From NCBI RefSeq assembly GCF_003018255.1, contig NZ_CP027440.1: a stretch of DNA of 64,000 nt, one strand, 5' to 3'. Origin of the DNA: Escherichia coli. Its GTDB lineage: Bacteria > Pseudomonadota > Gammaproteobacteria > Enterobacterales > Enterobacteriaceae. Both the position numbers and the translations under genes were made by a program. Under the pieces are notes generated by a model, which was given only the letters and a program-made list of their open reading frames with translations, was not told where the DNA came from and did not search any database. Of the stretch, positions 160-38,999 are shown piece by piece (the stretch's first letter is position 1; every line of letters begins with the position of its first letter).

Positions 160-250
160 TATAGCGCGGCGATTTTTTTGATACCGATTTGCATTTCATT
201 TGATACCGCTGAAAAACGCCGATACGCAACTTATTTGATACTAAATCGGC
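160..250. repeat. Prophage right-end (mom-proximal) terminal region with repeated TTTGATAC motifs (candidate transposase binding sites)
   Basis: TTTGATAC occurs at 177-184, 199-206 and 234-241, with a degenerate GATAC at 221-225. The same motif occurs inverted at the other end of the element at the same 17-nt offset from the terminus. Confidence 0.7.
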
Positions 251-287
251 GCTTTTCTTTTGAGTTTTAGAATGAGTTTTTAAGCGC

Positions 288-1025
288 TCATTCACTCTCT
301 TTCAAACCAGTTTTAACTGTTTGTGGTTTTGGGTAAGGCTGGACTTTGAATAGCTTTGTGTTGAGGCGTTTTCTGGCCCTCTTGTTCAGAAACCGGATGT
401 AACGAAACTGTCGGAACTTATGCACACTGGCTCTGTCGATATTAGCCCTCAGATGTTCACCTCGTTGTCCGCCTCGTTTAATGGCACTCCTGCAAATCTC
501 GTGATACCACTCGCCATCAAGTTCATAGAATGTTGATTCATGGCTGCCTACATAATCAAAATTGCTTGCCTGATACACGACACCAAGACAGCCACAACGC
601 TCATCTGCAAACGACTGAACCCACTGTACCTGCGGATAAAGCTGCCTGATTAGCTTGAGCGCGTAACTGATTGCCCTTGATTCGGAGTTTCTCGGCATAC
701 AGTCATGCATCCATAGCCGGTTAAGCTCCATATATTCTCGGTTCTGCGTACCCGTTACGACGCGTGCACCACTGTTTGGGTTAAGGGCGTAACCCCATTG
801 CATTACGCCAACAAGTTCCCGTTCTGAAAATATACCCAGATGAAGGTAGGAATTATTTACGAAACGGTGGCTGTAATGTTTATTGACGATAACCAGTCTG
901 GCCAGCCAGCAACTTATTGTCTCAACCCGCAACTCACGGGAGCCATAACCAACGATATTGTCGTTATAGCGAATAAGTTCAGGCGTGCTGATGATACGGG
1001 ATGTGACTTGCTTTCTGTTCCCCAC
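288..1025 (-). CDS. mom: Mom-family DNA adenine modification protein (GTG start)
   Basis: 245-aa ORF, last gene before the prophage end. It overlaps the 3' end of a Com-like zinc-finger gene as in Mu. Motifs [24 protein letters not shown] and YQASNF resemble the Mom family as I remember it. Confidence 0.75.
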
Positions 1026-1179
1026 GACAGGATTTCCTTGTGTATGTGGGGTGCTCTGTGGCGCTCGGAGATGTGATTTGATTGAGGGTTTTACAGCGCG
1101 GACATTTTACTTCCAGATAACTGAAACTGGCCCGTGCCAGTAGCTTATTGCAGTGTCGGCACCGTATGTTTCGATACAT
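979..1179 (-). CDS. com: Com-like zinc-ribbon translational activator of mom
   Basis: Internal start gives [34 protein letters not shown]..., which parallels Mu Com (MKSIRCKNCNKLL...IRCPRCK). AGGAGG lies 9 nt upstream of the ATG at 1179. The track ORF 979..1224 has a 15-aa N-terminal extension with no RBS. Confidence 0.8.
1020..1051 (-). promoter_or_regulatory. Stem-loop sequestering the mom GTG start codon (Mu-type translation-inhibition structure)
   Basis: On the mRNA strand, CCCCAC (1051..1046) pairs with GTGGGG (1025..1020), which contains the GTG start. The 20-nt loop holds the AAGGAA Shine-Dalgarno. The structure lies inside the com 3' region. Confidence 0.55.
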
Positions 1180-1224
1180 GGCCGCATAACCTCCTGCTTT
1201 GTTGTTGATGCCTTTCTCATGCAA

Positions 1225-1400
1225 TCGATCGACAAAAACGATCGATTCGATTTGTTTAATTGATACAACAAATAGATTTAAAAGTCATCAACAATGATTC
1301 AGGGCGGTGATTATTTACTTAAAGAAACGAAGAGTTAGGTGGTGAAAACGATCATAAAATGATCATTTTATTGACTTTTTATACAGTGAAGGTAGGATCG
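1225..1400 (-). promoter_or_regulatory. com-mom upstream control region with GATC (Dam site) cluster
   Basis: Five GATC sites lie at 1227, 1240, 1350, 1361 and 1396. The first two sit in the palindromes TCGATCGA and CGATCGAT, 13 bp apart. There is also a dyad ATTTGTT-N9-AAACAAA at about 1250-1275. Mu Pmom is Dam/OxyR controlled through clustered GATCs. Confidence 0.5.
1371..1398 (+). promoter_or_regulatory. Candidate sigma70 promoter directed toward the plus-strand zinc-ribbon gene
   Basis: TTGACT (1371-1376), 16-nt spacer, TAGGAT (1393-1398). Confidence 0.35.
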
Positions 1401-1450
1401 CGCGTATATGTAGTATGTTTCAAATCAACAGGATACTACATAAAAGGGAA

Positions 1451-1478
1451 ACCCAGCATAGCTGGAACTATGCTGGGT
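1451..1478 (-). terminator. Intrinsic terminator-like hairpin (minus-strand sense)
   Basis: Perfect 10-11 bp stem ACCCAGCATAG/CTATGCTGGGT with a 6-nt loop. On the minus strand it is followed by TTCCCTTTTATG. It would insulate com-mom from upstream read-through. Confidence 0.55.
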
Positions 1479-1585
1479 CAATCTGTAAAAACTTGCATCA
1501 ATGCTTTACTTCGAGCTCGTGGCGTATCCTATGATATTCCCCGGTCTCCTGTAAAGCAGAGATGCATAAAAAGGAGATCTTTATC

Positions 1586-37587: not shown

Positions 37588-37597
37588 ACATCCCCCA

Positions 37598-37864
37598 TCA
37601 AGCCACTTCTCTGGCGTCCACCTGGTATCTGCTGGGCCAGATTACAGCAGGTTCAACCCCTATTTTTTCGGCGATGGCGGCTTCGTATTTACGGCACTGG
37701 CGGTAAAACACATTGCGCATTGATCCGCTTTTTAATCCTAACTCCCTTTCCAGTTCAGGGAGGTCTGTGCCTTTGTTTTCAAGGGCTGCATATACCGCTT
37801 TAGCAGACCAGTCACACCCCTCTCGAACAAACAAATTATTCGATGCTTGTCTGGATACCCTCAT
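37598..37864 (-). CDS. ner: Ner-like early repressor (HTH)
   Basis: 88 aa. The C-terminal PAVIWPSRYQ matches Mu Ner (PEVIWPSRYQ). Confidence 0.8.
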   Translation of the reverse strand: MRVSRQASNNLFVREGCDWSAKAVYAALENKGTDLPELERELGLKSGSMRNVFYRQCRKYEAAIAEKIGVEPAVIWPSRYQVDAREVA

Positions 37865-38020
37865 TGTGTGATCCTCTCATGTTTACCTGAACCGATAATC
37901 AAAACCGGTTATCGATTTAGGTAAATCATAATCGCAAAATAATTCGATATCAACGGTTTTTTGCGAGCATATCGAAATTAAATGCGATGTCGATAATTTC
38001 TTTGTTTTATAGGGGGTTAT
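37865..38020. promoter_or_regulatory. Divergent immunity/operator region between ner and the repressor gene
   Basis: Five or more TCGATA/TATCGA-type hexamers lie at about 37892, 37909, 37943, 37969 and 37989. The region contains the early promoter candidate. Confidence 0.6.
37925..37953 (-). promoter_or_regulatory. Early promoter candidate (Pe)
   Basis: On the minus strand: TTGATA (37953..37948), 17-nt spacer, TATGAT (37930..37925). It lies about 60 nt upstream of the ner start. Confidence 0.55.
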
Positions 38021-38632
38021 ATGGATAAGGCAGAAAAAACCGTATCCAGTGCGGAACGGTTTATTGATATGGAAGGAATAAACCGATTTTCAGAACGCTT
38101 AGCTATGGCTATGGGAAACATGACAAACGTCGAACTGGCGACCCTTTGTGGACTATCTGAAGCCACAGTAAGAAATTACAGGAAGGGGAAAAACTTCCCT
38201 CCTTTGGATAAACTGGCCTTAATAGCTAAAGCCTGTAATTGTTCACTCGAATGGTTGGCCACAGGCAAGAACGAAGATGAATGCGGAAAAATCGAAAACA
38301 ATTGCGATTCAGGTTCGGGTATTGATCAGGCGCTTAGCTCTCTAAGCCCCCAAGAGAAGCAATTAATCCTTACATTCATCAGGCGAGAAGGTACTAATAA
38401 CCTTGTCAGGCTGGCAGCAATGAATACATCTACAATCAGCCAGGATGCGGTAGAAAGCATCATTGATGCCTTGCCATTACGTCCCGTACTAAAAAATGCA
38501 ATAAAGATAGGAATGGCGGGAAGTGAAGAAACAGACAAAGAGATTTTGCGCGTTATTGAGAAGTACAACTCGAGCAATAACGCCACCCAGGAATCAGGGG
38601 CAGTGACAGTAAAGAAAAATGTTGTTGGTTAA
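38021..38632 (+). CDS. Prophage repressor, XRE/Cro-CI-type HTH N-terminus with uncharacterised C-terminal domain
   Basis: 203 aa. The HTH is TNVELATLCGLSEATVRNYRKGKNFP. It is divergent from ner-A-B and occupies the Mu c position. AGGGGG RBS. Confidence 0.75.
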   Translation: MDKAEKTVSSAERFIDMEGINRFSERLAMAMGNMTNVELATLCGLSEATVRNYRKGKNFPPLDKLALIAKACNCSLEWLATGKNEDECGKIENNCDSGSGIDQALSSLSPQEKQLILTFIRREGTNNLVRLAAMNTSTISQDAVESIIDALPLRPVLKNAIKIGMAGSEETDKEILRVIEKYNSSNNATQESGAVTVKKNVVG

Positions 38633-38773
38633 GCGCCATCGCTATCATGAGGTGGTGCTGTAAATACATATAGAGATCATATGACTCATCCCAAGATAAT
38701 CACGCTATTGAATAGTAATTCATGATGATTATCATACTGATTATAGTTAGATCGATTATGTGAGCATTTTGGC

Positions 38774-38809
38774 AGTTTGAAGATGTTTTGAAGATGTTTT
38801 GAAGAAGAT
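38774..38809. repeat. Three tandem ~11-bp repeats (GTTTTGAAGAT)
   Basis: AGTTTGAAGAT GTTTTGAAGAT GTTTTGAAGAAGAT, read directly from the sequence. Confidence 0.8.
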
Positions 38810-38827
38810 TTTAAGGGTAAATTAGCA

Positions 38828-38999
38828 GTATCAAATGTGTCGCCGTTTTTTGATCTTTTGACTATTTGTTGAGCAGTCGGTATCAAAAAGAGTTTTCCGT
38901 CCGAAGTATACATCACCTGTTTTATTTCAGCATCTTACAGGTGATTTCACCTCCTTTCACTAAAACCCTTGTCGGTATCAAATGATTCACCTGGTTACA
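38828..38999. repeat. Prophage left-end terminal region with inverted TTTGATAC motifs (candidate transposase binding sites)
   Basis: GTATCAAA occurs at 38828-38835, 38880-38887 and 38975-38982. The last is 17 nt from the terminal ...GGTTACA. Confidence 0.7.

Follow-up and report, generated by a model that had tools for sequence, protein, structure and literature searches.

We have analysed a window of 64 kb (64,000 nucleotides, nt) of Escherichia coli DNA from contig NZ_CP027440.1, this window being the extent of the host genome inspected, in which the alpha-galactosidase gene melA is interrupted by a prophage. The prophage occupies window positions 160-38999 (38,840 bp) in minus orientation and splits melA after nucleotide 1048 of that gene. 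From its junctions, termini, gene content and copies in other genomes, we consider it very likely that this segment is a complete, transposition-competent prophage of the type of Sp18 from the O157 strain Sakai, and that it entered melA by DDE transposition. The features at the insertion are the following.

1-159, + strand: melA 5' fragment (melA nt 890-1048), identical at 158/159 positions to melA of strain E04
156-159: left copy of the target-site duplication AACG, from the overlap of the flanks on intact melA
160-38999, - strand: prophage assigned to the Sp18 type, c/repressor end at 38999 and mom end at 160
39000-39003: right copy of the target-site duplication AACG, from the same overlap
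39000-39311, + strand: melA 3' fragment (melA nt 1045-1356), within a stretch 401/401 identical to E04

The sequence-only reading of this DNA had placed an intact Mu-type prophage at 160-38999 between the two halves of a single melA frame, and these boundaries proved exact to the base. Homology to intact melA stops at window position 159 and restarts at 39000. Copies of the element elsewhere begin to match at 158-160 on the mom side, where 158-159 represents chance identity of the flank, and cease to match on the c side at query position 1400, which is window position 38999. Relative to the intact melA of strain E04 (451 amino acids), the left flank is identical at 158/159 positions and the right flank (window 39000-39400) at 401/401, and the two flanks overlap on the intact gene by exactly 4 bases, AACG (melA nt 1045-1048). 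Fusion of 1-159 to 39004-39311 rebuilt, unchanged and as the same reading had maintained, the C-terminal 155 residues of E04 MelA (...GNVRN/DGLIDN...). In the interrupted gene the frame enters the phage end and reads ...GNVRNV before a stop, one codon beyond the junction, so that MelA is cut at residue 349 of 451; the truncated protein is very probably inactive.

The melA junction was found in none of 5426 complete E. coli genomes and in none of the GTDB species representatives, among which the mom end alone also gave no match; its lack from the complete genomes therefore fits a recent, strain-specific insertion. That lack, together with the facts that multi-copy elements can mislead assemblers and that the element occupies up to 5 places per genome, could also suggest that a repeated Mu-like copy was misplaced in melA during assembly. 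We regard such an artefact as extremely improbable, in that both junctions fall exactly at the element termini and melA bears a 4-bp target duplication, the same footprint as at ten other sites, which a misjoin would not create.

Insertion by transposition directs attention to two genes of the prophage and to its two ends.

34493-35425, - strand: B, AAA+ ATPase with a MuB C-terminal domain, 48% identical to MuB and 100% to Sp18 B
35497-37587, - strand: A, DDE transposase of 696 amino acids, with N-terminal Mu DNA-binding and Mu-transposase C-terminal domains
160-250, + strand: mom-side terminus (attR equivalent), 5'-TATAGCG, with putative transposase sites at 177-184, 199-206 and 234-241
38828-38999, - strand: c-side terminus (attL equivalent), 5'-TGTAACC, with putative transposase sites at 38975-38982, 38880-38887 and 38828-38835

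The N-terminus of A, MWVTAKECVGLPDLP, matches that of MuA. Pfam recognized HTH_Tnp_Mu_1 (4.2e-5, above the cutoff) and Mu-transpos_C (1.5e-17) in A, which also matched the PHROG 310 transposase family over its full length (1e-209). Its catalytic triad is D309/D375/E415, the first two residues of which align with D269 and D336 of MuA; E415, located in the sequence GRGIIERLNR 39 residues past the second Asp, aligns with the catalytic Glu of the integrase of Rous sarcoma virus/avian sarcoma virus (RSV/ASV). The best sequence matches of A among PDB structures were likewise retroviral integrases (RSV/ASV), not MuA, to which A is 23-24% identical. B contains the Walker A motif GVPGVGKT and the Walker B motif LVIVDE, and matched the Pfam families Phage-MuB_C (2.5e-25) and AAA_22.

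Read from c end to mom end, the element runs from TGTAACC... to ...GCGCTATA. At both termini 17 nt are followed by TTTGATACCGA and then by further copies of the octamer TTTGATAC, as had been noticed correctly from the letters alone. These further copies are all directed inward and at Mu-like spacing, +113 and +165 being their distances from the c end and +40 and +75 those from the mom end. Each end thereby carries three TTTGATAC sites, the first two on the mom side being spaced by 22 bp. In Mu, attL has one terminal site and two distant ones, and attR has two abutting sites 22 bp apart plus a third; judged by the positions of the octamers, the layout observed here is that known for Mu attL/attR. 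The octamer occurs 8 times in the 64 kb against 1.9 expected, a count reached by 0/100 shuffles, and 6/8 copies lie no more than 172 bp from a prophage end. The sites are retained in Sp18, in which the mom-side terminus (160-250) is identical, and in the more distant GenBank entry LC727881, in which it is near-identical, even where the sequence between the sites has diverged. By analogy with Mu, A may be expected to bind the TTTGATAC end sites.

Outside the two ends, single copies of TTTGATAC are found in the A-B intergenic region (35441-35448, +) and at 18816-18823 (-), about two being expected by chance. Three tandem 11-bp repeats (TTTGAAGATGT...) are present at 38776-38815, beyond the repressor gene and short of the innermost site of the c end.

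We observed a 4-bp target duplication at 11/11 matched insertion sites of the Sp18 family, as follows.

window (melA): AACG
O111:H11 strain 88.0502: CGTG
strain War: CTGG
EH031: TATG
strain 107: TAGT
Sakai Sp18: TAAA
LC727881: GATG
IMG/VR genome 2529293218: TTCT
IMG/VR genome 2548876695: TGTT
strain 8479, phsC site: GATC
strain 8479, yeaW site: TCCG

Duplications of 5 bp are known for Mu and of 6 bp for B3, and TG...CA ends have been described as universal among these phages (PMC8705779); the 4-bp duplication and the TA end seen here both depart from this pattern, by which transposable prophages are recognised. A 5-bp duplication obtained by shifting the boundary by one base fails in the window (TAACG vs AAACG), in strain 107, in Sakai and in LC727881. 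No paper stating a 4-bp duplication was found in the literature searched, the coverage of which stops short of older subscription papers; the sole record found of such a duplication is in the GenBank features of LC727881, where the depositors themselves labelled two repeats of 4 bp 'duplication due to insertion of Mu'. Three end pairs shared no 4 bp, namely those of strain 142 (NZ_CP028609.1) and of IMG/VR genomes 2617270962 and 2617271340; rearrangement, or the presence of several copies per genome, would possibly account for these. In strain 142 the two end flanks are unrelated, one holding an ISEc8 transposase and the other a ketoacyl-synthase gene. The c end is of the TG/CA type and the mom end reads 5'-TATAGCG in all copies compared, so that one transferred strand ends in TA-3'.

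The distribution of the element supports, indirectly, its mobility. A 1.5-kb query spanning the mom end was covered to at least 80% in 207/5426 complete E. coli genomes, some of which hold several copies, and the copies listed adjoin more than 25 different neighbouring genes or loci, including other prophages and plasmid records. Among these neighbours are sbmA, yeaW, etk, dprA, betT, siiEA, lhr, cho, bglJ, yghD, yfcC, yfcU, glrR and ydeE, as well as structural genes of other prophages and the ISEc8 transposase. The window element has counterparts of 99.9-100% identity in O157:H7, O111:H11 and other backgrounds, and the best match to the chromosomal part of the window is 99.6%; from this difference we infer that the phage spread horizontally more recently than its hosts diverged.

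An unusual arrangement was encountered in strain 8479 (records NZ_CP074995.1 and NZ_CP074994.1). A 166.9-kb 'plasmid' of this strain consists of chromosomal genes around one copy of the element, flanked by ydhX and a truncated phsC on one side and by a truncated yeaW on the other, and a second copy in the chromosome is joined to the complementary halves of phsC and yeaW. The duplications GATC and TCCG, one per site, are shared across both replicons, and because these reciprocal 4-bp duplications link the two, the 'plasmid' appears to be an excised chromosomal circle generated by the phage. Two routes would fit its formation, namely intramolecular replicative transposition and recombination of one direct copy with the other.

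Published observations on Sp18 itself bear on the same point. Sp18 was predicted to be intact, and its DNA is efficiently packaged and not circularised (PMC2669165); Sp18-like phages reside at different loci in FRIK804 and CC119 strains (PMC7430833, PMC10132054); and Sp18 was reportedly lost during construction of a Sakai mutant (PMC13502914).

To assess integrity, we carried annotation over from the RefSeq record of the copy in O111:H11 strain 88.0502 (57 coding sequences, CDS). The gene map, from the mom end to the c end, with a frameshifted open reading frame (ORF) near the mom end, is given here apart from A and B.

288-1025, - strand: mom, GTG start, overlapping com; PF25680 Mom at 8.5e-77, 79% identical to Mu Mom
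979-1179, - strand: com
1294-1756, + strand: accessory ORF, frameshifted (intact in Sp18 as ECs_4996)
1795-2040, - strand: DUF826 gene, non-Mu cargo
2076-2255, - strand: DUF1378 gene, non-Mu cargo
2313-4361, - strand: NanS-p/YjhS-like sialate O-acetylesterase of 682 amino acids with SASA and DUF6645 domains, cargo
4461-5021, - strand: Gin-type DNA invertase, 75% identical to Mu Gin
5082-6472: invertible tail-fibre segment, with 185-nt inverted repeats at 5082-5266 and 6288-6472
5082-5471, + strand: alternative fibre end, inside the invertible segment
5506-6027, - strand: tail-fibre assembly gene, inside the invertible segment
within 6107-16674, - strand: tail fibre, baseplate (gp48, gp47, gp46, V, P) and DNA-circularization protein
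within 6107-16674, - strand: tape measure, tail assembly, tube and sheath
16671-26279, - strand: head-tail connector genes, major head protein T, protease I, G, F, portal, large and small terminase
within 26282-28758, - strand: small late genes, Rz/Rz1 and lysozyme
28333-28758, - strand: single Mor/C-family activator
28828-34490, - strand: semi-essential early region, including gemA (28828-29337) and gam (32610-33140)
37598-37864, - strand: Ner-like helix-turn-helix (HTH) regulator, 38% identical to Mu Ner and 39% to Sp18 Ner
38021-38632, + strand: repressor, CI-type HTH, divergent from ner and unrelated to Mu c

For 55/57 CDS the open frame is complete and as long as in the O111:H11 copy, the exceptions being the frameshifted accessory ORF and the promoterless alternative tail-fibre end, the latter being normal for an invertible segment. 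All genes for phage functions are open, and the accessory-ORF frameshift is the sole lesion found. By tblastn, the element is collinear with Mu for ner, A, B, gam, gemA, C/mor, lysozyme, Rz/Rz1, both terminase subunits, portal, F, G, I, T, sheath, tube, tape measure, N, P, the baseplate proteins, tail fibre, tail-fibre assembly, gin, com and mom. Two further claims made from the letters alone, that the Mu gene order is complete and that A, B and the packaging, head, tail and baseplate genes are free of lesions, thus withstood this comparison. The large terminase is 73% and the major head protein 66% identical to Mu, and proteins of the tail and baseplate block (6107-16674) are 35-53% identical to Mu and 99-100% to Sp18. 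Located between gin and com, the cargo genes include one for an esterase with approximately 61% identity to 9-O-acetyl-sialate deacetylases of the NanS-p/YjhS type, which Stx-converting lambdoid phages encode (353 phage records).

Several observations weigh against a fully competent prophage. Ten amino-acid differences in total separate its proteins from those of the O111:H11 copy, any of which could in principle be disabling; the accessory ORF is frameshifted in both of these copies; one Mor/C-family activator was recognised, vs two in Mu; and one terminus is TA instead of CA. Mu requires a CA terminus. Moreover, A is only about 23% identical to MuA, so that Mu biochemistry can be applied to it only by analogy, and Sp18 was reported not to be inducible by mitomycin C (PMC2669165). 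The ten missense differences, the frameshift, the non-canonical TA terminus and the behaviour of Sp18 with mitomycin C could be taken together to mean that the prophage, although structurally complete, is dead in function or under permanent repression, a fixed cryptic insertion of no consequence beyond the melA knockout. We consider this unlikely: A and B are identical to those of the copy at another locus, 20/35 of the nucleotide substitutions fall in one patch of small early genes (29457-30316), and the TA end and the frameshift are also present in copies at other loci. Decay normally gives stops and indels and, that shared frameshift apart, none were seen in 38.8 kb. Since all copies share the TA end, a TA terminus is evidently tolerated by this family.

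For the prophage as a complete and transposition-competent element, the insertion can be pictured by analogy with Mu. A would bind the three sites at each end, pair the ends and transfer their 3' termini, which are ...TTACA-3' (c end) and ...GCTATA-3' (mom end), to target phosphates with a 4-nt stagger; B, as an AAA+ ATPase, would deliver target DNA; and gap repair would leave the AACG duplication. In the lysogen, the CI-type repressor (38021-38632) would shut off the divergent ner-A-B early operon. The sequences themselves show the boundaries, the duplication, the intact genes and end sites, and the near-identity to copies at many other loci. The biochemistry of transposition and the repression circuit are drawn from the analogy with Mu, and the melA copy is probably still inducible, as suggested indirectly by its near-identical copies and by the published packaging of Sp18 DNA.

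One copy at another locus is that in O111:H11 strain 88.0502, between gabP and gabT, which is 99.91% identical to window 159-38999, with 35 substitutions and no gap. The cluster of 20 of these substitutions within 0.9 kb (29457-30316) suggests a recombination patch rather than clock-like divergence. Sakai Sp18, the coordinates of which were taken from PMC7430833, lies in sorM and is 98.0% identical to the window prophage over 31.2 kb and 98.8% over the last 1.9 kb. The termini of the two are nearly identical (the first 26 nt of the c end are the same, with 2 differences in the first 28, and the first 130 nt of the mom end compared are identical); they also share the site layout, the 4-bp duplication (TAAA in Sakai) and the position of the cargo between gin and com, and most structural proteins are 99-100% identical.

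The differences from Sp18 are concentrated elsewhere. No nucleotide match to Sp18 was obtained for positions 176-1538 counted from the c end, the repressors are 26% and the Ner proteins 39% identical, and A, which is 96% identical overall, differs at its N-terminus. Because this c-end immunity module (repressor, Ner, A N-terminus) has been swapped, the window prophage is predicted to be heteroimmune to Sp18. The same immunity variant is carried by at least 30 listed public genomes, with a c end 98.6-100% identical. The cargo esterase and the corresponding protein of Sp18 share only 60% identity, the accessory ORF is intact in Sp18 (ECs_4996), and the insertion site is sorM rather than melA. 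A 1.39-kb tail-fibre segment is inverted relative to Sakai Sp18 and is 98.6% identical when reversed; the tail fibre, whose variable end lies in that segment, is 83% identical to that of Sp18, and the fibre and assembly genes are on the same strand in the window but not in Sp18. Because the segment has flipped between the two, the Gin-type invertase and the 185-nt inverted repeats must operate in the Sp18 family. On this sequence comparison the window element is an Sp18-type phage of predicted different immunity, a new instance of a known family.

A tRNA-like sequence is present within the element at window 21049-21128 (+), between phage genes F and G and antisense to the late genes. It has a canonical T arm (GCGGGTTCGACCCCCGC) and a 7-bp acceptor stem, is without a normal anticodon arm, and scored 31 bits with the Rfam tRNA model against a 29-bit cutoff in a scan of this small region only. 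No tRNA was found in the element by ARAGORN, nor by Rfam at the gathering threshold over the whole window. The sequence is annotated as tRNA-OTHER by PGAP in the O111 copy, is 75% identical in Sp18 and is absent from Mu.

The host side of the locus qualifies the consequences of the insertion. The gene order in K-12 is melA-melB-yjdF. The window has no melB: the 1,665 bp that hold this gene in K-12 are replaced by approximately 20 bp (window 39312-39340), the melA stop codon overlaps the end of yjdF, and yjdF encodes 216 amino acids vs 209 in K-12. Strain E04 has the same arrangement, which is also implied in JNE23-011, JNE112863 and 2017.09.02CC because the whole 25-kb flank matches in these strains as a single piece. 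By this comparison, the lineage had lost the melibiose permease MelB before the phage arrived. The suggestion that the insertion serves as a Mel- marker, which the sequence-only reading had made, is therefore weakened by the earlier loss of melB, although melA is indeed truncated; its value as such a marker depends on melibiose uptake by another route in this lineage.

Outside the prophage, the window is ordinary E. coli backbone at 99-99.6% identity. Its chromosomal part (39001-64000) reached 99% identity or more in only 32 records. Annotated genes in this conserved part include fumB, dcuS, cadA, cadC and dsbD, and it contains a standard tRNA gene at 56955-57027 (-), with an Rfam score of 68 bits.

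At the level of the strain, the finding is a recent, strain-specific insertion that truncates alpha-galactosidase, brought about by a resident element capable of causing more knockouts, deletions and excised circles, of the kind that strain 8479 shows for this same element; the existence of variants predicted to be heteroimmune would also allow double lysogeny. At the level of the field it adds little, as Sp18-like phages are known to be intact and to occupy variable loci in Shiga toxin-producing E. coli, and insertion into melA is an ordinary event for a phage of this family. Three traits, namely a 4-bp footprint, a TA end and a transposase of non-Mu type, belong to the Sp18 family as a whole and are the only ones that might seem mildly unexpected. 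Because of the 4-bp duplications and the TG/TA end pair, prophage finders that rely on 5- or 6-bp scars and TG-CA ends would misplace the boundaries of such elements.

Comparison with other transposable phages places the element near Mu in organization and apart from it in sequence. DNA of Mu, D108 and SfMu matched over only about 600 bp at about 72% (2% of the query), Mu having no nucleotide match for window 25000-39000, so that the element is Mu-like in design but not a Muvirus; the Mu-type identity first proposed for it holds for the design and gives way, at the level of kinship, to the Sp18 type of O157 Sakai. With Mu it shares the gene order from c/ner/A/B to gin/com/mom; three transposase sites per end, with L1 apart from L2-L3 and R1-R2 abutting at 22 bp; the MuB-type ATPase, Gam and a Mor/C-type activator; the invertible fibre segment; and Mom modification. 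The exchange of immunity between D108 and Mu parallels that between the window element and Sp18. In contrast to Mu, the element has a transposase with a compact D-D(39)E core and approximately 23% identity to MuA, a 4-bp rather than a 5-bp duplication, one TA terminus, a CI-type rather than a Mu c-type repressor, one Mor/C homologue, and extra cargo genes.

Among isolated phages, the nearest relatives of A are in three groups. The A gene of the Yersinia phages vB_YpM_5/6 is 81.6% identical in DNA, with no nucleotide match outside A. The A protein of the window element is 43% identical to that of Haemophilus phage SuMu and approximately 29-30% identical, over 90% of its length, to those of Pseudomonas D3112-like phages, the virion modules of which are of siphovirus type and are not matched by the window element. 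Precedents for departures from the Mu pattern are the 6-bp duplication of B3 and the TA-TA ends of Leptospira prophages with a Tn552-type transposase (PMC8705779); these B3/Tn552-type and Leptospira phages differ from the window element, which has a 4-bp duplication and one TA end, in their 6-bp duplications and their other transposase family. These likenesses and differences lead us to propose, tentatively and with slightly less than even confidence, that Sp18-type phages may form a distinct transposable lineage, in which a Mu-like myovirus chassis and a MuB-type ATPase are combined with a transposase of SuMu/D3112 type, whose DDE core is compact and resembles that of integrases and which makes 4-bp duplications and accepts a TA-3' end.

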